From the NCBI GenBank assembly GCA_900299055.1, contig OMII01000059.1, forward strand, positions 1-46,053: DNA of 46,053 bases, read 5' to 3'. Positions 3,327-36,063 of this stretch are shown in pieces (position 1 is the stretch's first letter; every line of letters begins with the position of its first letter). The stretch comes from Pseudomonadota bacterium (GTDB lineage: Bacteria; Bdellovibrionota_C; UBA2361; OMII01). A program made the position numbers and the translations under genes. The notes beneath the pieces are model-generated. The model saw only the letters and a program-made list of their open reading frames with translations, ran no database searches and was not told where the DNA came from.

Positions 3327-4309
3327 GACGCGTGTCAGAGAATCAAACTACTCGAAACTTAGTTTCGTATGCGCTGGAGAATAAGCGCCGAGTGGGAGAG
3401 TATTCAAAACAACTCACCACAGGTCTCAAAGTCGAAAAGCCGAGCGATTCGATTGACGCGGGGACAATCTCGCGTTACCAGCAGCAGATAGCAAAAATTG
3501 ATACGTATAATAGCACTATCGCCCAAGCAAAGAGCTTTTTGCAGTCCCAGGACGACATTGTCAGTCAAGCAAGTCAGCTCTTAGTGAGGGCAAATGAGAT
3601 TGCGCAACAGGGCGCAAACGAGACGTTGAGTGAGTTTTCTCGCTCGCAGCTCGCTGAAGAGGTATTTCAGATACGGGATCAGATGGCGAGTCTGGCCAAC
3701 TCTACCTTTCAGGGGAAATATGTTTATGGTGGCGTTGATGACGATGACGCTCCATATGATCTCCAGACCTATGCTGAGCCTGTAGATGGAGATGCTAATA
3801 AGCGCTATGTGTTCGATGCAGAGCCAGGTACCGACGTCAGCAAGACAGTGCGGGTCTCCGATGATATCAGTGTGACGCTCAACACTCCGGCGGATAAAGT
3901 TTTTGGTACCTCTATGGAGGCACTCGAGCGTTTATCCAGGGCGCTTGCGGGATATTCGACGAATCCAGCCAGTGGAACCCCCGATGGAACTGGCACTGCG
4001 TACACATTCCCAGATGACTTTCACACCCAAACATCCGATATAAAGGCGTGCATTGATCTTTTAAACTTTGCTCGCGATAAAGAGATGATCCCAGAGCGAG
4101 TCGCTTTAGGCGGACGTTTACGAAGAATTGAGACTGGCACAGCCCTACTTGAGCTGACCAAGAACTCGGCAAAAGAGGCGCTCAGTCGGCTGCAAGATGC
4201 GGACGAGGCGGAGGCGGCGTCCAACCTCCAGCAGGCCCAGACAGCCCTTCAGGCCTCATACTCCGTTACAGCAAAGGTTCTTCGGCTCTCGATCCTTGAT
4301 TACGTATAG
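3323..4309 (+). CDS. flgL: Flagellar hook-associated protein 3, FlgL
   Basis: 328 aa. It overlaps the flgK stop by ATGA. It has flagellin-like terminal helices; the C-terminus reads AEAASNLQQAQTALQASYSVTAKVLRLSILDYV. Confidence 0.8.
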   Translation: MRRVSENQTTRNLVSYALENKRRVGEYSKQLTTGLKVEKPSDSIDAGTISRYQQQIAKIDTYNSTIAQAKSFLQSQDDIVSQASQLLVRANEIAQQGANETLSEFSRSQLAEEVFQIRDQMASLANSTFQGKYVYGGVDDDDAPYDLQTYAEPVDGDANKRYVFDAEPGTDVSKTVRVSDDISVTLNTPADKVFGTSMEALERLSRALAGYSTNPASGTPDGTGTAYTFPDDFHTQTSDIKACIDLLNFARDKEMIPERVALGGRLRRIETGTALLELTKNSAKEALSRLQDADEAEAASNLQQAQTALQASYSVTAKVLRLSILDYV

Positions 4310-5040: not shown

Positions 5041-5720
5041 TTATGGTAGTCGCGCCGCATCAGGACGACGCGGAAATCGGAATGGGCGGTACTATAGCCT
5101 CTCTGCGGAGCGAGGGAGTACGAGTAGTGATAGTGGACCTCAGTGATGGTGAGCCCACGCCATTTGGTAGTCCTGAAATACGGGCACGAGAAACGAAAGC
5201 TGCTTCCTCGATCTTAAAGATAGAGGAGCGAGAGCTGCTTGGTCTCCCTAATCGTGAGATTACTGACTCTACGGAGAATCGTAAGCGACTTGCATCATGC
5301 ATTCGCAGATACAAGCCTGAGATAATATTCGCCCCGTATTGGAGTGACGCGCATCCTGACCACGTACAAGCCTCCGCCCTGGTTGATGCTGCGCGCTTTT
5401 ACGCAAAGTTCGTAAAGACAGATATGCCCTATGAACCCTGGTACGTACGGTCTCAGTTTTATTTCTTCTCGACACATATGAAAGTGAGAATTCAACCGTC
5501 ATATGTGTACGACATCTCAGGATTCTTGGAGAGTAAATTGTCTGCGATCCGTGCGTTTGAGTCGCAGTTCGTGTTGCATCAGAAGAACGCCCAGCGCCTG
5601 CAAGAGATAGAGACAGAGGCTCGTTATTGGGGTAACCAACTAGGGGTAGAAGCGGGGGAGCCCTTCGTGAGTAAAGAGAACGTGCGGGTCAAGAGCGCTG
5701 CGCAACTGTTTTCGTTGTAG
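5028..5720 (+). CDS. PIG-L/LmbE family N-acetylglucosaminyl deacetylase, BshB1-like
   Basis: 230 aa. Motifs seen: VVAPHQDDAEIGMGGTIA, DLSDGEPTPFGSPEIRARE and DAHPDH. These parallel B. subtilis BshB1 (AHADDVEIGMGGTIAK...DLT...HPDH) as I recall it. It overlaps the GT2 gene by 13 nt. Confidence 0.8.
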   Translation: MEPVVMVVAPHQDDAEIGMGGTIASLRSEGVRVVIVDLSDGEPTPFGSPEIRARETKAASSILKIEERELLGLPNREITDSTENRKRLASCIRRYKPEIIFAPYWSDAHPDHVQASALVDAARFYAKFVKTDMPYEPWYVRSQFYFFSTHMKVRIQPSYVYDISGFLESKLSAIRAFESQFVLHQKNAQRLQEIETEARYWGNQLGVEAGEPFVSKENVRVKSAAQLFSL

Positions 5721-5729
5721 GTTTGACGA

Positions 5730-7205
5730 ATGTCAGATGTGATCGTTCCCCCATACCCTGACTGGAAGGCGCTGCTTGAGCAGAGTATGAAGGCCCGCCC
5801 AGAAATAGCAGCTGCTGTTGGTGCTCATGAAGTCTTAAATGCTCGGGCAGACGTAGCTGAGTGCGCACAAAGATACACCGATTATCTGCTACGCGCAGCT
5901 TCGGAGCGCGGTATTCGTTTAGTTGATGCGGGCGATCTGCCTGACAATAGCCAAGATGCAGCCGTAATGGCTGGTCATCAGCCGGTGGTATTTCATCCTG
6001 GGCTACTCCTCAAGGCGCAGATCCTCTCTAAGTTCTCCAGGGAATCGGGAGCGCTTGGTATACCGGTGATTATCGATACAGATGCGGGAGATCTGTGTGA
6101 AATTAGCTGGCCGCGCGTCAGTGGTGATGCGCTCCTGGTACGGCGTGCCTCAATAGCGTGTGCCACAGTGCCGAGCAATCAGAACGTTGATGCTCCAGTG
6201 CTCTACTCAGCGCAACAAATTAAGACTCGAGATGAAATTCATGAAATTTTTAGCGAGATGCAGACCGATCTTCTCGCAGCCGGTCTGGATAGTGCGGCAG
6301 AGCGCGCTAGAAAAGTTGGTGCAGTATACGAGCTCCTTGCCGGTTGTTCTCTAGCGATGGCGAACTCGATTGCTCGCTGGAGTTTTGAGCGAAGAGGGTA
6401 CCGAGAAGTGCCACTCTCAATGCTCCTACGAGATACGTCGCTACGTCATGTTGTTTCAAAGCTAGCGCAAGATTCAACTAGGTTATTTGAGACGTATAAC
6501 GGATGTCTCGACAATTATCGGCGCGAACATTCGATTAAGAACGTAGCGAATCCATTTCCAAACCTGAAAAAGCGTGATGACTCGTTTGAGTTGCCATTCT
6601 GGGTCGTCCGAGATGGTGAACGGCAGCCTTTGTGGAGTAGTGACAAGGACCTCGTCGATTTCGGAGAAGAGACATACCTTGCGACGCGGGGAAGTATTAC
6701 CACCATGATACTGCGAGCGTATTGCTCAGATCTGTTTATCCATGGGATAGGTGGTGGAAAATACGATCGGTTCGTTGATAGCTTTGGCGCGCATTACTTA
6801 GGCACTCCGCTTTCACCGTTTGTAGTGGCGAGCCGCACGCGTGTAATCAATCCGAGTCGAGTGGATGAGTTATCCGCAGCTGTGTTGAGAGGAAGCTCCA
6901 TGAAACAAGTGGTGTCCCAGACAGAGCTTTATTTAGGGAAGGGTATCTTCACGGCTCAGGAGGAGTGTCGATTGCGGGAGGTGCTGGCGAAGCGGGCTCG
7001 ATTACGCGAGCAGTTGGGGACGGCTGCCAGTCCGGAAGAAAAGAGCACGGTCGCGCACGCTTTAAATCAGATGAATACGGAAGTTCGCGAAGTTGTCCAA
7101 GGGAGCATCTTGCAGTCGGATGTCGCTGAGCTACCGAGAAATCAGAAGCTGCTAGAAGGGTGGAGCTATCGGGAGTTTCCATATTTTCTCTTTGAAGGTG
7201 ACTGA
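5730..7205 (+). CDS. Conserved hypothetical protein, a distant BshC-like (putative cysteine/amino-acid ligase family) candidate
   Basis: 491 aa. AAVMAGHQPVVFHPGLLLKAQIL...GIPVIIDTDAGDLCEI parallels BshC AAVVGGQQAGLLTGPLYTIHKII...VPVIPIFWVAGEDHDLDEI. DLFIHGIGGGKYDRF parallels LAFIAGPGEINYW. The tail is helical and charged. The similarity was judged by eye only. Confidence 0.4.
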   Translation: MSDVIVPPYPDWKALLEQSMKARPEIAAAVGAHEVLNARADVAECAQRYTDYLLRAASERGIRLVDAGDLPDNSQDAAVMAGHQPVVFHPGLLLKAQILSKFSRESGALGIPVIIDTDAGDLCEISWPRVSGDALLVRRASIACATVPSNQNVDAPVLYSAQQIKTRDEIHEIFSEMQTDLLAAGLDSAAERARKVGAVYELLAGCSLAMANSIARWSFERRGYREVPLSMLLRDTSLRHVVSKLAQDSTRLFETYNGCLDNYRREHSIKNVANPFPNLKKRDDSFELPFWVVRDGERQPLWSSDKDLVDFGEETYLATRGSITTMILRAYCSDLFIHGIGGGKYDRFVDSFGAHYLGTPLSPFVVASRTRVINPSRVDELSAAVLRGSSMKQVVSQTELYLGKGIFTAQEECRLREVLAKRARLREQLGTAASPEEKSTVAHALNQMNTEVREVVQGSILQSDVAELPRNQKLLEGWSYREFPYFLFEGD

Positions 7206-9010: not shown

Positions 9011-10195
9011 CTACAGTCCCAGAGCGCTGGCTGCTTGATTGTACAGGTACAGCAAGCTCTCAATAGGGAGCTCCGCTCCGCGCAAGGTCGGAGCGTCTAG
9101 TTTATTTCGATTTGGATCTACCAAGCAAAGGTCAGGATCGGCGATGGGGGATTCTCCTTCGTAGTTACGCTCTAACAGGGTGCGGAGAGCCCAGTATCGT
9201 GATGCGTAGAGATCGTAAGCCTCGTGCTCGCTTCCAGCTTTGGATTCCATTTCGGTGGCACTTTGTTCCCCAGAGAGATGGGCTTCGCTGGTGACGATGT
9301 CTGAGCCGAAGAGAACGCGGCCTCTCCATCTCTCAAAGAAGTCTCTTAGTTCAAGCGGTGTATGTTTGCTTAGCTCACGAACGATCCATTTAGTAGCGCT
9401 ACAATCGAGGTAGAGATTTTGATGACGGCTGAGGAGTTTAGATAGGAACGGAAGATCTTCAGGGTAACCTCCCATGTGAGCGGCTATCCAGGGATTGGGA
9501 AAAAGGTCGAGCACTTCTTCGAGCGTTTCATATTGCTCGCATTTCGTACCGTATTTAGTTGAGTCGGAGTATTTTGTTTGGAACCACGTGTCGGGGTCTC
9601 CGATGTGCACCATAAACATCATCCCTAGGTCCGCCGCCGCGCGCATCGCCTCTTTACGCAGCGCAGAGTTGAGTCGAAGCCGGCTTGAAGCAAACGGCTC
9701 AGAAGTAACTTCGTATATTCGCGGCGCGTTCCAAAACTTAGCTATTCGAGTTCCCGCTCTTTTGAATGCCTGCAGATCTCGGATAAACCCCGGGCCGAAG
9801 GCCTGAAGTCTGTCGTTGTTACTGAAGTTTGGAATGGCAATGAATCGTACGCTGTCTCCGAGGATGTTCTGGACTGCTGGGATCTCGCTGAGGCTCGTCA
9901 TGGAGTATGTTCGAACGATGCCGTAGTGTTGAGCTGCCTGCGCGTATATCCTCGCCGCCCTCTCTCCGTGAATGTGTGAGTGAACATCGATAATACCGTC
10001 TTGTATCGGTGGAAAGGACTGACTCTCGAGGGCGTAGCGTAGGTTAAGGCGATTTGCGGGTTTCATAGGGGCCACCTGGTAGTATGCCAAAAACTGCAGT
10101 AGGGCGTCATTCCATATAGTGTGGAACGCCCAATCTAGCGATCGAACTCCGTTTTTCGGTAAAATAAGCGGAAGTTCTTGGTTAGCCAAGATCAT
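9011..10195 (-). CDS. Metal-dependent amidohydrolase (TIM-barrel, Amidohydro_2-like)
   Basis: 394 aa. It has IDVHSHIHG (HxH metal motif), then FMVHIGD, AAHMGG, LYLDCSA and VLFGSD, which is the typical strand-end pattern of amidohydrolase-superfamily enzymes. Confidence 0.7.
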   Translation of the reverse strand: MILANQELPLILPKNGVRSLDWAFHTIWNDALLQFLAYYQVAPMKPANRLNLRYALESQSFPPIQDGIIDVHSHIHGERAARIYAQAAQHYGIVRTYSMTSLSEIPAVQNILGDSVRFIAIPNFSNNDRLQAFGPGFIRDLQAFKRAGTRIAKFWNAPRIYEVTSEPFASSRLRLNSALRKEAMRAAADLGMMFMVHIGDPDTWFQTKYSDSTKYGTKCEQYETLEEVLDLFPNPWIAAHMGGYPEDLPFLSKLLSRHQNLYLDCSATKWIVRELSKHTPLELRDFFERWRGRVLFGSDIVTSEAHLSGEQSATEMESKAGSEHEAYDLYASRYWALRTLLERNYEGESPIADPDLCLVDPNRNKLDAPTLRGAELPIESLLYLYNQAASALGL

Positions 10196-10281: not shown

Positions 10282-11778
10282 ATGAAGCGACTCGACGTGG
10301 GACCTTCCCTCACATGGCCGACCGAGGCACTGCGAGCGAGGAGCTTAATAGGTGGTGAGTGGGTCTCTGGCTCTGCTAACACCACGACCGTAACTAGCCC
10401 GTACAACGGGCAATCCCTGGGAGAGCTCCACCACGCATCGTCGTCGGATGTAAGCCGAGCGGTAGAAAGCGCAGCCAGCGTATCGAAGGAGTGGCGGCTG
10501 GTTCCTATAAAGGAGCGAGCGTCGCTGCTTCTCGAATTTCGGAATCTTCTCGCGCGGGACATCGATCGCCTAAGCGTGAGCGCTGCCTTAGAGTCTGGAA
10601 AGACGTTCTCAGAAGCAAAAGCGGAGGTCCTAAAGGCGATAGAAGTCGTCGAGTTTGCCTCAAGTCTAGAAAATAGTGACCTTGGTGGAGCGATCGAAGT
10701 TAGCCGCGGAGTTTCGTGTGAATATCGGAGGGAGCCTCTTGGAGTAGTTGCAGGTATCACGCCATTCAATTTTCCGGCAATGGTCCCGATGTGGATGATA
10801 CCAATCGCACTAGCTCTGGGTAACGCGTTTATCCTAAAGCCCTCGGATAAAGTTCCACTGACCCCATGTATACTAGCCGAGCTTATTGCAGCGGCTGGGT
10901 TTCCTGCTGGAGTCTTTTCGATACTTCAGGGGGGACGCTCAGTCGTAGAGCAGTTAGTTGTAGATCCTCGAGTGCAAGCGGTCGGGTTTGTGGGCTCAAG
11001 TGCAGTCGCTCAGGCGGTATATGCGCAAGCTACATCGACGGGAAAGAGAGCTCTTTGTTTGGGAGGTGCTAAAAATCATCTAATTGTCGCTCCAGACGCG
11101 GACCCTGCAATCACCGTGGACGGCATTGTCGCGTCCTTTACCGGCTGTGCCGGTCAACGATGTATGGCGGCCAGTGTGCTCGTGGCGGTAGGCAATGTTG
11201 ATCACATTATAGACGCGGTCGTTGAGCGGGCATCTCAGATACTGCTTGGGAGAGACATGGGGGCACTTATCGACGCAGCGGCGGTTTCGCGTTTGTCAAA
11301 GGCCGTCGCGACAGCAGCGCGTGAAGGAGCGACCATTCGGCTTGATGGTAGGAATGTGGTTCCACCTACCGGCAGTGAGAAAGGAAACTGGTTTGGCCCG
11401 TCTATAATCGATAACGTGCGGCCTTCGATGGAGTGCTCCTGTGTGGAGTTGTTTGGGCCAGTTTTATCTATTGTACGAGTTCGTACTATTGACGACGCGC
11501 TTAAGCTGGAGCGTGAGAGTGCATACGGCAATGCTCTCTCAATTTTCACGACGAGTGGCTCGGTCGCTCGGCACGTAGCGGACCGTGCCACCTCCGGTAT
11601 GATCGGGATTAATGTTGGCGTTCCTGTTCCTCGCGAGCCCTTCTCGTTTGGAGGAACAAAGGACTCTAAGTTTGGTGTTGGAGATATAACGGGTTGGGGT
11701 GGAGTGGAGCTATGGTCGACTCGCAAAAAGATCACCACCAAGTGGTCGACCCAGAGCGATAAAAATTGGATGTCCTGA
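10282..11778 (+). CDS. mmsA: CoA-acylating (methyl)malonate-semialdehyde dehydrogenase
   Basis: 498 aa aldehyde dehydrogenase. It has FNFPAMVPMWMIPIALALGNAFILKPS and the catalytic-Cys context FTGCAGQRCMAASVLV, which is characteristic of the MMSDH subfamily. Confidence 0.85.
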   Translation: MKRLDVGPSLTWPTEALRARSLIGGEWVSGSANTTTVTSPYNGQSLGELHHASSSDVSRAVESAASVSKEWRLVPIKERASLLLEFRNLLARDIDRLSVSAALESGKTFSEAKAEVLKAIEVVEFASSLENSDLGGAIEVSRGVSCEYRREPLGVVAGITPFNFPAMVPMWMIPIALALGNAFILKPSDKVPLTPCILAELIAAAGFPAGVFSILQGGRSVVEQLVVDPRVQAVGFVGSSAVAQAVYAQATSTGKRALCLGGAKNHLIVAPDADPAITVDGIVASFTGCAGQRCMAASVLVAVGNVDHIIDAVVERASQILLGRDMGALIDAAAVSRLSKAVATAAREGATIRLDGRNVVPPTGSEKGNWFGPSIIDNVRPSMECSCVELFGPVLSIVRVRTIDDALKLERESAYGNALSIFTTSGSVARHVADRATSGMIGINVGVPVPREPFSFGGTKDSKFGVGDITGWGGVELWSTRKKITTKWSTQSDKNWMS

Positions 11779-11797: not shown

Positions 11798-13057
11798 ATG
11801 ACTGAGAAGAAGAGAGCAGTAAAGCCGATAGTACTAACATCACACCCATCGGCGCGAACGCCGGTCTCCTATCCGATTCAGTGGGGAGAGCGCGATCCTA
11901 AACGTAGAGGGCCAATTATCGGAACGCTCACCACACCGGAGCACCGCAATTGCATGGGCACTCACTCTGGAGCTTATTCGGTATATCGTGCGTTGGCAGT
12001 GGCCGCAGGCAGTCTTGATCCGCTTCATGTGCCGGATTTAACTAACACTGCGCCAGTAGATCGAATCGGCCCTTTTGATAGCTGGTACGAGCCTAAGCGA
12101 ATCGTATCGATGGATCCGTGGGGGGCTGATGTGGGAGAAGTCTTCCGCGATGAGATTAAGGCAGGTGTAAACATTCAGCCTACCATCGCTATAACTCGAG
12201 CTCATATCACGATGCCTGAGATTGTCGAGGAAGTACGACGCGGAGGTATTTCAGTTGATGGAGAGATAGTTGGTGCTAACGGAGACTGTAAGGTCACAAA
12301 AGCAGCCATAGAGCCAGTGTGGTTTCTTCCGGCGGTCGCTGAGCGGTTTGGCATCGCAGAGTCCGAGCTCAGGCGCGCACTGTTTGAGCATACGGGCGGT
12401 ATGTTTCCTGAGCTCATTACACGGTCAGATCTGCATGTGCTTCTGCCCCCAATCGGAGGACAGACTGTCTATTTCTTTGGAGAGGTAGCTTCGATTCCAG
12501 ACCTTACCAAGGAACTGACAATACGAATTCATGACGAATGCAACGGATCTGATGTGTTTGGGTCTGATATTTGCACCTGTCGACCATATTTGATTCACGG
12601 CATCGAGGAGTGTGTTAAAACGGCGCAGAGAGGTGGTTGCGGAGTCATTGTATATAATCGCAAAGAGGGGCGAGCGCTCGGAGAAGTGACGAAGTTTCTT
12701 GTCTACAACGCGCGTAAACGCCAAGAGGGAGGTGATAGAGCTGATATGTATTTTCACCGCACCGAGTGTATCGCAGGCGTGCAAGATATGCGTTTTCAAG
12801 AGCTCATGCCGGACGTGCTTCATTGGATGGGGATCAAGCGAATAGACCGCCTCGTGTCGATGAGTGACATGAAGTATAACGCGATCACGCGCTCTGGTAT
12901 TGAGGTTGTAGAGCGTGTTTCGATACCGGACGATCGTATCCCAGCGGATGCTCGTGTGGAAATGGATGCTAAGAAGGCAGCCGGATACTTTGCTGAGCAC
13001 GGGGCCCCTACTGAAGAAGATTTGAAGAAAACAAAAGGACGAGGACTTCTTGAGTAA
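11798..13057 (+). CDS. GTP cyclohydrolase II-like protein of the URC1 type
   Basis: I trimmed the start to the ATG at 11798, because the track ORF start at 11699 overlaps mmsA. 419 aa. It has IRIHDECNGSDVFGSDICTCRPYL (a GCH-II zinc motif variant) and a long N-terminal extension, the architecture I recall for yeast URC1 and its bacterial homologs. Confidence 0.75.
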   Translation: MTEKKRAVKPIVLTSHPSARTPVSYPIQWGERDPKRRGPIIGTLTTPEHRNCMGTHSGAYSVYRALAVAAGSLDPLHVPDLTNTAPVDRIGPFDSWYEPKRIVSMDPWGADVGEVFRDEIKAGVNIQPTIAITRAHITMPEIVEEVRRGGISVDGEIVGANGDCKVTKAAIEPVWFLPAVAERFGIAESELRRALFEHTGGMFPELITRSDLHVLLPPIGGQTVYFFGEVASIPDLTKELTIRIHDECNGSDVFGSDICTCRPYLIHGIEECVKTAQRGGCGVIVYNRKEGRALGEVTKFLVYNARKRQEGGDRADMYFHRTECIAGVQDMRFQELMPDVLHWMGIKRIDRLVSMSDMKYNAITRSGIEVVERVSIPDDRIPADARVEMDAKKAAGYFAEHGAPTEEDLKKTKGRGLLE

Positions 13058-13138
13058 GAAGTACTTACCATTCTCTGTGAGGACGCCAATCTTCACAGAA
13101 CCTAGGATAGTGTGCGTAAGGCAAGGGACGTATCGTAT

Positions 13139-13771
13139 ATGAAAAATCCGCAAGTAACAGTTATTTCGCATCCTCTTGTACAACATAAGCTGACTCTGAT
13201 GAGGATGGAGACGACACAAACCTCGGACTTTCGGCGACTTCTTCGAGAGGTGAGTATGCTTTTAGCCTACTAAGTAACGAGAGACCTCCCAGTCGTTATG
13301 ACCGAGATAAAGACGCCAATTCAAATGATGAAGGCGCCTATGATCGAGAAGAAAATTACACTCGTTTCGATTCTCAGGGCAGGGAATGGAATATTAGAGG
13401 GAATGCTAGAGTTGCTGCCATCGGCTCGGGTTGGTCATATCGGGTTGTACCGGGATCCACAGACCCTAACTCCAGTGGAATACTACTTCAAGATGCCGCC
13501 AGATATGTCACAGCGTGATGTGATCGTTGTGGATCCGATGCTGGCCACGGGGAACTCGGCGGCGGCAGCGCTTAGTCGTTTGAAGACTCAGAAGCCCCTA
13601 TCTCTCAAATTTGTCTGCTTAATCGCCTGCCCGGAGGGTGTGGAATTGCTCACCTCTGAGCATCCTGACGTGCCAATTTACACAGGAGCGATCGATGAGA
13701 GGCTTAATGAACATGGATACATAGTGCCAGGATTAGGGGACGCTGGAGATCGCATCTACGGCACCGTTTAA
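13139..13771 (+). pseudogene. upp: Uracil phosphoribosyltransferase interrupted by one in-frame TAA (13271-13273)
   Basis: The ATG at 13139 gives [44 protein letters not shown], then TAA. The same frame continues [13 protein letters not shown]...[10 protein letters not shown]...[17 protein letters not shown]. The whole 210-codon frame is colinear with E. coli Upp, and the stop sits where Upp has Glu (LLTY-E-ATADL). Confidence 0.85.
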
Positions 13772-17747: not shown

Positions 17748-18563
17748 ATGGTTTCAACGAGTGATTTCGAATACATGGGTCTTGGTATTGAGCGACGATT
17801 TGCTCGTTGTGCCGCATGGTGGGCGCCGCATCTCTCGTGTTCACGGGAGTTCATTGCGCGGTACTCGTATCCGGCATCCTCTATAGCGGTACTCGGAGCT
17901 GGACGCCTGCTTGACGTGGATCTGCAGCGGCTTCTCACTCGCTGCGAGATAGTGCATCTATTCGATGCCGATCCTCGCTGTGTTTCAGTGTGGAAGAGAC
18001 AAGCAGGTGATCTCTTCGGACGAAGAGTAGTGCCGCACATCGGCGACCTCACTCGTTCTCTTGTGACTTGGACTCGCGGGGTACCAGCAGCGCTGCGGGC
18101 ACGATCTCTTGGTGAGTACCTTCTTTCACTACAACCCGACAGGGATTTGCAACTAGGGCAATTCGACGCAATTATCTCCCTCAATCTCTTAGGTCAGCTA
18201 CCTTTGTATTGGCGTGACAAAGTCCAGGGCATCGTGCGTGACCTAGAGGTTGCTGATTGTGAAGCACTCGTCCACTCCATGGGAGAGCTTCAAAACGCAC
18301 ATCTTCATTTGCTTCATCAGAGTGGAGCATCGTGGAGTGTTGTTATTTCGGATACCGAATATTACTTCTATGATATCGACGCCTCGGAGTGGCGCGTTGA
18401 ACCCGCTTTGTTTGGATCTGGTCGCGAATCATGGCTAAATAGGGAGGCGAACGCCGAACTAATCGCCGTTGATTCGTGGTTGTGGCACATAGCGCCACAA
18501 CTTATTGAAGCAGAAGACGAGGGGGAAATTCACCGTGTTGAGGCACGCCTTTATCGCTACTAA
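17748..18563 (+). CDS. Hypothetical protein, possibly a Rossmann/class-I methyltransferase-like fold
   Basis: I trimmed the start to the ATG at 17748, which has an AGGAGAGAG RBS; the track ORF start at 17508 overlaps trmB. 271 aa. IAVLGAGRLLDVD and VHLFDADP resemble MTase motifs I and II. I recognise no family. Confidence 0.4.
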   Translation: MVSTSDFEYMGLGIERRFARCAAWWAPHLSCSREFIARYSYPASSIAVLGAGRLLDVDLQRLLTRCEIVHLFDADPRCVSVWKRQAGDLFGRRVVPHIGDLTRSLVTWTRGVPAALRARSLGEYLLSLQPDRDLQLGQFDAIISLNLLGQLPLYWRDKVQGIVRDLEVADCEALVHSMGELQNAHLHLLHQSGASWSVVISDTEYYFYDIDASEWRVEPALFGSGRESWLNREANAELIAVDSWLWHIAPQLIEAEDEGEIHRVEARLYRY

Positions 18564-33586: not shown

Positions 33587-33985
33587 ATGTCCGGAAATAC
33601 TAGAGATACCAAGCAAAAGCGAGCGATTCTTTCTGCATTTGAGGAGGCTCATCGCCCTCTAACACCCGTGCAGGTCCAAGCGGCGGTATTACGCGAGCTG
33701 CCGAAAGTGAGTCTCGCAACGGTGTATCGAGTCATTAAAACCTTTGTCGAGCAGGGAAGCCTCGTTCCCGTTTCTTTTCCAGGGGCAGCTGATCGTTATG
33801 AGAGTAAGGAGTGCGCAGCGCGCCATCATCATCACTTCTTATGTACGAGCTGCGATCGGGCGTTCGACCTTCCAGGGTGCGGATTGAGGGTTTCGAGTGG
33901 GTTACCGGATGGCTTTGCGATTAGTCGGCATGAAGTAGTTCTGTACGGCTCCTGCGATAGCTGCAAAGGCGCGACAAGCATATGA
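33587..33985 (+). CDS. Fur family metalloregulator (Zur or Fur; type unresolved)
   Basis: 132 aa. It has a winged-helix region KQKRAILSAFEE...SLATVYRVIKTFVEQG, a metal-site segment HHHHFLCTSC and a C-terminal CDSC. Confidence 0.85.
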   Translation: MSGNTRDTKQKRAILSAFEEAHRPLTPVQVQAAVLRELPKVSLATVYRVIKTFVEQGSLVPVSFPGAADRYESKECAARHHHHFLCTSCDRAFDLPGCGLRVSSGLPDGFAISRHEVVLYGSCDSCKGATSI

Positions 33986-36063
33986 ACGGGCACTCTAGCG
34001 GTATAGTCATCCTAGCTAGGCAGGTTGTTCGATGTTTTGGGTGTGCTCTTAGCATCGGTCTTGCGTCATGGGTAGATTGCACTTACGCCGACGAAAATGA
34101 CGTCACGCAGCATTCTGATATTGAGTATCACCTCGATAAGGTGATTGTTGAGTCCTCTCCTTTGCAGGACACGCTTTTTAATTCGACTCAGTCAGTATCC
34201 GTTCTCTCCGGGGCAGACCTCGACGAGCAAGCGAGAAATTCTCTGGGAGATACCCTTGCGCACCAACCAGGTGTGACCTCATCCAGTTTTGGTCCGGGCG
34301 CGGGCAGGCCGATTATTCGTGGCGTAGGAGGAGATAGAGTCCGAATCCTTGAGAATGGCGTCAGCACCCAGGATGTCTCGAGTGTCAGTCCGGATCATCC
34401 TACGACGATCGAGTCTAGCCTCGTAGATAAGATCGAAGTGGTACGTGGCCCCGCAGCGCTGCTGTATGGAACAAGCGCTATCGGAGGAGTCGTAAATACA
34501 TTTGATAAGCGCATCGCCGAGAAGCTTCCCACTAAGCCCGTCAGTGGCACGATGGAGATGCGTGCTGATTCAGTTGATCAGACGCGGTCTGGTGTGTTCG
34601 GTCTCGACGCCCCGGCTGGCCCAATCGTGTTTCATGTCGACGGCTTTAAGCGTCGCTCCGGTGATATCGGGATACCGGGCTTCGCTCGAACTGCGGATCT
34701 ACGGGATTCAGAGCCGCTAGACTATCCTGAGCCAAAAGGGCGTCTGCCTTGGAGTGATACCGATAACAGCAATCTCACACTGGGCTCCTCATATGTCTTC
34801 TCAAAGGGCTTCGTCGGTGCTGCAGTCAGTGAATACGACACGAGATATGGTGTGCCTAATGGTGAGCCTGATGTCAGCATCGATGCTACTCGAAGACGAG
34901 TCGATGTTCGCGCAGGAGTGCGAGACGTAGGAGATGTTATTGAGTCAGTAATTGCACGAGCTGGTCTTGTTTCGTATGACCATACGGAGTACCAGCGAAG
35001 TGACCCTGGCACTCGTTTTAACCAGGATAGTTTTGATAGTCGTCTCGATATCACTCATAAGGAGATCCACTCCCTTCGAGGTACGTGGGGAGTGCAGGTC
35101 CAGGGGGCCACATTTGAGGCGATTGGAGAGGAGGCGTTTCAGCCTCCAACCGATACCGGTATATACTCGGCATTTGGCCTCGAGGAGCTGCTCGTGCGTG
35201 ATGATCTAACGTGGCAGCTTGGAGGCAGGCTTGATTGGAATAACACGTCAACAACTGGGTTTGAGGCTGGAGGGACGGATAATTTCAACGTCGACCAAAC
35301 CACTCTCAGTCAATCAACAGGGGTAGTCTGGGATGTGACCCCAGACTACGCCGCAGCACTCTCAGTGGCGCACACTGAGCGGGCACCTACTGGCCAGGAG
35401 CTCTTTGCTGATGGGCCGCATATTGCGACGGGGGCGTATGAAATAGGAGATCAGAATCTGGGTATTGAGCGCTCTATAGGGACAGATCTTACGTTGCGAA
35501 AAAAAGAGGGAGTAGTTCGAGGATTCATCGGGGGGTTCTTTAATCGGTATTGGAACTATATAAGCCTTAATCCGACTGGAGCAGAGGAAGACAATCTGCC
35601 CGTATATACGTTTCAGGCTGTTAACGCGGACTTTATTGGCTTTGAGTCACAAGTGGCGCTCTTTGTTAGAGATAGAGCTGGAGAGGAGCTGTCGTTTGAT
35701 ATCCAGCCTGATTATGTGTGGGCCAGAGATCGCAATAACGATGAGTATCTCCCTCGTATTCCACCGTTTCGGTTGCAAATCGGTAGCACCTACTACAACA
35801 AAGATATCTGCAGGATTAGGCTCGAGGCGCAGCAGGTTTTTTCACAGAGGAATACCGCGGATTACGAGACCTCGACCGACTCATACACCATGCTCAATCT
35901 CTATGTTACTAAAGAGCTACCGTCGATTATGAGAAATCTTGAGGTCTTTGCCCGGGGAACAAACCTACTCTCAGAGAAGGCGCGGAATCATACATCATTT
36001 ATCAAAGATGTAGCTCCGTTGCCCGGAGCCTCTGCGATGGTCGGGCTACGGATTCGATTTTAG
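33982..36063 (+). CDS. TonB-dependent outer-membrane receptor (metal uptake type)
   Basis: 693 aa. It has the plug motif GAGRPIIRGVGGDRVRILENGV and a C-terminal beta-barrel ending GLRIRF. Its ATG overlaps the fur-family stop (ATGA). Confidence 0.85.
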   Translation: MNGHSSGIVILARQVVRCFGCALSIGLASWVDCTYADENDVTQHSDIEYHLDKVIVESSPLQDTLFNSTQSVSVLSGADLDEQARNSLGDTLAHQPGVTSSSFGPGAGRPIIRGVGGDRVRILENGVSTQDVSSVSPDHPTTIESSLVDKIEVVRGPAALLYGTSAIGGVVNTFDKRIAEKLPTKPVSGTMEMRADSVDQTRSGVFGLDAPAGPIVFHVDGFKRRSGDIGIPGFARTADLRDSEPLDYPEPKGRLPWSDTDNSNLTLGSSYVFSKGFVGAAVSEYDTRYGVPNGEPDVSIDATRRRVDVRAGVRDVGDVIESVIARAGLVSYDHTEYQRSDPGTRFNQDSFDSRLDITHKEIHSLRGTWGVQVQGATFEAIGEEAFQPPTDTGIYSAFGLEELLVRDDLTWQLGGRLDWNNTSTTGFEAGGTDNFNVDQTTLSQSTGVVWDVTPDYAAALSVAHTERAPTGQELFADGPHIATGAYEIGDQNLGIERSIGTDLTLRKKEGVVRGFIGGFFNRYWNYISLNPTGAEEDNLPVYTFQAVNADFIGFESQVALFVRDRAGEELSFDIQPDYVWARDRNNDEYLPRIPPFRLQIGSTYYNKDICRIRLEAQQVFSQRNTADYETSTDSYTMLNLYVTKELPSIMRNLEVFARGTNLLSEKARNHTSFIKDVAPLPGASAMVGLRIRF

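Follow-up and report, generated by a model that had tools for sequence, protein, structure and literature searches.

The question raised by this locus is whether the organism has really lost UPRT, the enzyme that salvages uracil to UMP, or whether the stop codon that interrupts its upp gene has another origin. The window analyzed here is the whole of contig C59 (46,053 bp), from an assembly of 294 contigs and 2.91 Mb that is rated 96.7% complete. In the window, upp occupies positions 13139-13771 on the forward strand and is full-length and colinear, with one in-frame TAA at 13271-13273 and no indel. Its translation gives 44 residues (MKNPQ...SMLLAY), the stop, 165 further residues, and the natural TAA at 13769-13771, while the list of open reading frames for this region holds only 13298..13771 (157 aa, from an ATG) and 13112..13273 (53 aa, from a GTG). 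The initial annotation had described a upp gene split by one in-frame TAA after 44 residues with no indel, and this was confirmed by translation and by profile matches. The two pieces matched NF001097 colinearly at model positions 3-42 and 44-208 of 209 (E-value of 6.5e-11 for the N-terminal piece and 224 bits for the C-terminal piece). Read through the stop, the gene scored 266.2 bits against TIGR01091 (cut-off 208.35) over model positions 2-206 of 207, with "1 TAA" and no frameshift. A single copy of upp was found in a profile search of the assembly.

The gene matches bacterial UPRT (TIGR01091, NF001097, and PF14681) colinearly over its full length, with both motifs of the family present. 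The read-through product aligned colinearly over residues 6-209 (274 bits) with the Bacillus caldolyticus UPRT in PDB entry 1I5E, the nearest solved structure. According to NF001097 and a structure model, codons 1-44 (13139..13270, forward strand) encode strand 1, helix 1, and most of helix 2. Codons 46-210 and the natural stop (13274..13771, forward strand; NF001097 and 1I5E) contain the PRPP-binding loop, in which a run of small residues comes after an acidic pair, and the uracil-binding motif G-L-G-D-A-G-D near the C-terminus, both of which aligned with 1I5E and were invariant in a 29-sequence alignment. The difference from bacterial UPRT lies at codon 45, an invariant Glu in the family and TAA in the window. 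The uninterrupted frame of about 208-211 codons is therefore broken at this codon, and the gene as written gives 44 aa and an untranslated remainder.

The frame of upp was open (213-230 aa) in all 19 congeneric genomes, where the codon at the position of the stop was GAA in 7 and GAG in 12. Residue 45 was Glu in 116 of 116 aligned homologues (71-95% identity), and Glu also stands at the aligned position of 1I5E. Together with the GAA found in the four conspecific contigs described below, these data indicate that the codon at 13271..13273 (forward strand) was ancestrally GAA. They bear out the proposal that a single GAA-to-TAA change replaced a conserved glutamate, and they are consistent with the alignment of this position to the LLTY-E-A motif of E. 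coli. A programmed read-through was rejected, since the stop is not conserved in the congeners, the conspecific contigs, or the homologues.

Besides the stop, only two residues of the window upp were unseen among the 116 homologues, and both are mild: Met63, which occupies a variable site, and Leu156, a position at which the homologues carry Ile, Val, or Met. Compared with the nearest other species, upp was 78% identical at the DNA level and 95% at the protein level (dN 0.03, dS saturated), and upp and the URC1-like gene were the best-conserved genes of the neighbourhood. The gene is under strong purifying selection in the species and its congeners. The statement in the initial annotation that the rest of the gene shows no decay thus held, and a decaying pseudogene was rejected on the basis of the single lesion, the two private residues, and the low dN; there was no indel relative to the four conspecific contigs either.

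In JGI contigs of a sister species (L043-L045), upp is called as a 171-aa protein from Met40 (L043:2501-3016), and the URC1-like gene is called as 315 aa and not 419 aa. A recurrent N-terminal truncation in relatives was rejected, because these 171-aa "UPRT" calls have wrong starts and the N-terminus is intact in frame. The gene caller is misled by a GAGG that lies inside the gene, 8 nt upstream of Met40. The same GAGG-type motif is present in the window (AGAGGTGA, before 13256).

Sibling strains of the same species were found among the members of the 90% cluster of the best database match. One member (P0121, 210 aa) was identical to the read-through product of the window except for Glu at 45, and another (P0122) was the 143-aa product, starting from Met68, on the public NCBI record for the window contig. 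P0121 is encoded by contigs from four other samples, which shared 99.55-99.76% DNA identity with the window over 8.2-12.6 kb. All four had G at 13271 (GAA) and no gaps inside upp. The comparison with sibling strains that had been proposed beforehand thus gave four assemblies with GAA and a change restricted to this one. Inside upp, the window shares the synonymous alleles at 13651 and 13702 with the sibling L042, from which it differs only by T13271. From these alignments, T13271 is a G-to-T change private to this assembly and lies on its private branch. The sequence around the stop, with any base at 13271, had no exact matches in the metagenome_contigs and genome_contigs collections, and the exact 157-aa product was absent from the protein record look-up.

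To widen the comparison with the siblings, exact look-ups were made with metK and a 245-aa protein, which found no match, and with hpf, which gave a second stretch; in all, 30.1 kb were covered by at least two of five conspecific assemblies. Over these 30.1 kb, the window carries 48 private substitutions and no private indels. Twenty-three of these substitutions are synonymous, 15 non-synonymous, and 9 intergenic, and one, the upp stop, is nonsense; transitions and transversions stand at 27:21. Random changes in the window genes would be expected to be 24% synonymous, 72% non-synonymous, and 4% nonsense, so that the observed proportion of synonymous changes among private coding substitutions (23/39, 59%, against 24% expected) is in marked excess (p = 3e-6). 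Moreover, at some private sites it is the window that holds the ancestral residue and the siblings that are derived (e.g., Asp434 of MMSDH). On account of this excess and of these sites, the assembly represents a real, slightly diverged lineage in which most private differences are likely to be biological.

Three local features were observed in these comparisons. Five private non-synonymous substitutions fall within 105 bp at 18064-18169, inside an ORF encoding a 271-aa Rossmann-like protein (17748-18563), and three of them are at positions conserved in other species (Val106, Val112, and Ala141); this cluster has the appearance of a short recombination tract or of a local stretch of poor consensus. 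At 9681, in codon 172 of an Amidohydro_2 gene (9011-10195, reverse strand), the window has an Arg that is private to it; Pro stands at this position in two conspecific contigs and in three other species. Together with the upp stop, this makes two private changes at conserved sites within one putative uracil-catabolic cluster. Finally, at 33963-34077, which covers the end of a Fur-family gene and the start of a TonB-dependent receptor gene, ERZ23495344 is 78% identical to the window, with many indels, while two other conspecific assemblies are 100% identical to it. This is an allele replacement that spans the signal-peptide region of the receptor.

The age of the stop was estimated from the private synonymous rate. 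The neutral expectation over the private branch is about 2 changes in the 633-bp gene and none was seen. Had the stop arisen when the branch began, the estimated probability of this outcome would be about 0.12. As no neutral changes are seen in upp on this branch, the stop is younger than the split from the 99.8%-identical siblings, and the absence of decay dates it no more finely. These results fit a real and very recent loss-of-function allele, upp(E45*), carried by the strain or by the majority of its population and younger than its split from siblings at about 99.8% identity. Such a cell would have no active UPRT, no salvage of uracil to UMP, and no uracil feed to the putative URC-type route. 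The lineage itself is real and its private variants show the filtering effect of selection, the identity of upp with the L042 haplotype but for T13271 has the look of one fresh mutation on a real haplotype, and a lack of further decay is expected on so short a branch. We regard this allele as a serious candidate that nonetheless falls short of an even chance, in part because no second sample carries T13271: the four siblings all have G and neither public collection held an exact match.

Other stops of the same kind were searched for in the whole assembly. A first hexamer scan yielded 423 candidates, mostly abutting genes or shadow frames, and the addition of a best-frame filter reduced these to five verified cases. 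The scan relied on dicodon scores and retained stops flanked on both sides by a coding-like best frame, after which the junctions were read and Pfam matches checked. Since it requires at least 40 codons per side and strong scores, with a sensitivity of perhaps 50%, the five cases are a lower bound. In addition to upp, at least four more single-base in-frame stops were thus found inside conserved domains, in mlaE, in glmU, in an FGE-like gene, and in a gene encoding an SSF symporter.

In mlaE, Tyr178 (TAT) is changed to TAA at 5339-5341 of contig C184 (forward strand); five conspecific contigs have TAT, and the conspecific protein P0136 is otherwise identical. The end of mlaE is overlapped by mlaF, and the mlaE stop, if real, would also affect the translational coupling of mlaF. 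An FGE-sulfatase-like gene, one of 11 paralogues, has a Tyr codon changed to TAA at 2031-2033 of contig C122 (reverse strand), a site occupied by Tyr in nine paralogues and by Tyr or Phe in the two congener loci that were checked. In the gene for the SSF sodium:solute symporter, a Gln codon is changed to TAG at 10930-10932 of contig C229 (reverse strand), and the congeners have Gln. At this site and at that in the FGE-like gene, the frames of relatives are open. Two further sites were noted that had no Pfam match, a possible TAG split of a membrane protein at 515-517 of C122 and a possible TAA split at 8488-8490 of C128.

The fourth case, glmU (contig C50, gene at about 5453-6820, reverse strand), carries weight for the origin of the upp stop. 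The Gly85 codon of its LGTGHA motif is changed from GGA to TGA at 6581-6583, and the conspecific P0376 and L064 have GGA and are otherwise identical. This gene, at 497 bits, is alone in this 96.7%-complete genome in exceeding the TIGR01173 cut-off, and the public record calls it as two pieces of 84 aa and 340 aa. GlmU is essential in bacteria, as it makes UDP-GlcNAc for peptidoglycan and lipid A. The glmU stop is probably a consensus error; if it were supported by reads, it would merit a study of its own. As a fixed null allele of a sole and essential glmU is implausible, at least some stops of this class would not be the organism's, and the presence of a private stop in glmU in the same assembly gives weight to an error also in upp and shows that such stops need not be real.

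We therefore favor an origin of the upp stop in the assembly. In the species itself, upp is ordinary, intact, and strongly conserved, and it closes a cluster that opens with genes for a malonate-semialdehyde dehydrogenase and a URC1-like GTP cyclohydrolase II. In this one assembly, a single G-to-T change at 13271 turns the GAA of Glu45 into TAA, with nothing programmed about it. T13271 would be an error at the base level, or a minor and unrepresentative allele, that became fixed in the consensus of a metagenome-assembled genome of low coverage, and the upp stop would belong to a group of isolated one-base stops dispersed across the assembly. That the stop is a consensus error or an unrepresentative allele, with the assembly and not the organism as its cause, is what we infer with slightly better than even confidence. 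To judge from the contig names of the sister assemblies, this species was covered only about 8-9x. Consensus errors in metagenome-assembled genomes of low coverage are likewise isolated, private, and set in otherwise perfect genes, and here one stop falls in an essential single-copy gene; unlike in such errors, the bulk of the private differences of this assembly look biological.

Several observations keep a real allele in contention. A wild strain whose private coding variants are estimated at 4,000 would normally have a few nonsense alleles among them, and dispensable genes account for four of the five stops (upp, mlaE, one of the eleven FGE-like paralogues, and the transporter). upp is itself non-essential, and de novo pyrimidine synthesis is present (pyrE). 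A rough count, based on a consensus error near 1e-4 per base and on nonsense variants surviving at a few percent of the neutral rate, gave about ten nonsense hits expected from either source, so that the error and the real-allele readings stay close. Error and mutation were told apart neither by the substitutions that created the five stops (two G-to-T, one T-to-A, one T-or-C-to-A, and one C-to-T) nor by a hand count of transitions and transversions among private synonymous and non-synonymous changes. The view of the initial annotation that a recent nonsense mutation, a strain polymorphism, or an assembly error are the leading readings is thus supported by the G of the conspecifics and the ancestral GAA. 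A comparison of the bin with itself revealed almost no internal redundancy and no sign of two strains assembled side by side. Over 365 bp, located just upstream of a 1290-aa ORF, the ends of contigs C196 (35454-35818) and C251 (7522-7886) are 96% identical, which may point to large paralogues or to a repeat that was not resolved and so interrupted the assembly.

Expression of upp despite the stop was also considered, by read-through of the UAA, by re-initiation at Met54 (13298) or Met68 (13340), or by pieces that reassemble. Met54 (13298..13300, forward strand), the first in-frame ATG after the stop and the start of the 157-aa ORF, lies only 24 nt past it, but it is not preceded by a Shine-Dalgarno motif at the usual spacing (a CGAGAGA ends 13 nt upstream). 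Met68 (13340..13342, forward strand) has a GAAGG 5 nt upstream, which explains why the 143-aa product on the public record is called from this codon. Against either start, the first 53 residues comprise strand 1, helix 1, and helix 2 in an AlphaFold model (mean pLDDT 82.5; strand 1 at 6-8, helix 1 at 12-22, and helix 2 at 28-47) and hold 21 invariant columns of the 29-sequence alignment, including H11, P12, L13, Q15, K17, L18, R22, and E45. The Met68 product would, according to the model, also lack the hairpin 52-69, and an N-terminally truncated UPRT is unlikely to be functional. In addition, no intact relative is split at the position of the stop, and UAA is the least leaky bacterial stop codon. 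Expression by any of these routes is very unlikely, in agreement with the earlier judgment that read-through and re-initiation were the weaker readings, a judgment now backed by the lack of a suppressor tRNA, of conservation of the stop, and of a Shine-Dalgarno motif before Met54.

A recoding of TAA, by an alternative code or a suppressor tRNA that would leave upp intact, would account for the frame being open on both sides of the stop, its one point of support, but the rest of the genome is at odds with it. Of the 1229 open frames in the genome with 300 codons or more, 428 terminate in TAA. A stop-reading anticodon was absent from all 40 tRNAs found, and under table 11 the window contains no other gene that is interrupted. 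The five internal stops involve all three stop codons and four replaced residues (Glu, Gly, Tyr, and Gln), and the conspecific contigs have GAA at codon 45 of upp. We consider recoding to be practically negligible.

The gene cluster begins with a gene for a CoA-acylating (methyl)malonate-semialdehyde dehydrogenase (10282..11778, forward strand; TIGR01722, 451.5 bits against a cut-off of 448.5), followed by a gene for a URC1-like GTP cyclohydrolase II of the PRK07198 type (11798..13057, forward strand; NF005536, 737 bits), the upstream partner of upp. upp is the last of this same-strand run, with the divergent Amidohydro_2 gene upstream and a convergent ABC exporter downstream. The order of the cluster genes also holds for the conspecific contigs and for those of the three other species closest to this one. 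As upp is the last gene before a convergent neighbour, its stop would have no polar effect, and a real stop would therefore carry no polar cost for the operon. In the yeast URC pathway of uracil degradation, URC6 is a UPRT and acts with URC1 (PMC7530994). The window resembles this pairing of URC6 (UPRT) and the GTP-cyclohydrolase-II-like URC1 in that upp directly follows the URC1-like gene and the MSDH-type dehydrogenase gene, and differs from it in that the window cluster is bacterial and putative. No match to DUF1688 (URC4) was found in the genome, but none was found in any control genome either, so that this result is uninformative.

Neither a second UPRT nor an NCS2 uracil permease was found in the genome, and no uridine phosphorylase was found above noise; the genome does have pyrE and a udk-like gene. 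With a real null allele, all uracil salvage would thus be lost, which weighs against the allele being real, and the cell would live on de novo synthesis. A further possibility is that the stop is not only real but selected, a wild strain having switched off its sole UPRT, the entry enzyme of the URC-type cluster. Null alleles of upp are selected in the laboratory by 5-fluorouracil and serve as a standard counter-selection marker. Laboratory nulls likewise arise by a single nonsense change in a dispensable salvage gene while de novo synthesis is intact (pyrE), and a selected stop would be their natural counterpart, caused possibly by pressure from a natural toxic pyrimidine analogue or by a benefit of stopping the drain of uracil. 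Unlike laboratory nulls, the upp stop shows no evidence of selection, and its allele, present in one assembly only, is indistinguishable from a consensus error. We thus judge selection for the stop to be improbable.

The upp stop is either a consensus error, the origin that we favor, or a fresh knockout of a dispensable gene; in both cases it is ordinary and involves no new mechanism. A real allele would amount to an ordinary knockout, at the level of the strain, of a salvage gene that the cell can do without. upp was intact in every other assembly of the species and in every congener examined, and the stop gives no ground for claiming an organism without uracil salvage or without the entry step of a URC-type route. 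As the species has an intact upp beside the URC1-like gene, the stop does not weaken the URC hypothesis for the species. The occurrence of isolated one-base stops, including one in an essential gene, makes gene-loss calls from this genome alone unsafe.

Among the 19 congeners, a URC1-like match was present within the 1.4-kb upstream flank of upp in 7 (adjacent in 2, about 1.0-1.3 kb off in 5), and the same flank held none in the other 12. One congener (genome G024) carries a second, partial copy of upp at 103343-103678 of its contig C19, inside locus L019. This copy spans residues of about 55-163, is 79% identical, and lies 0.9 kb downstream of the intact upp.
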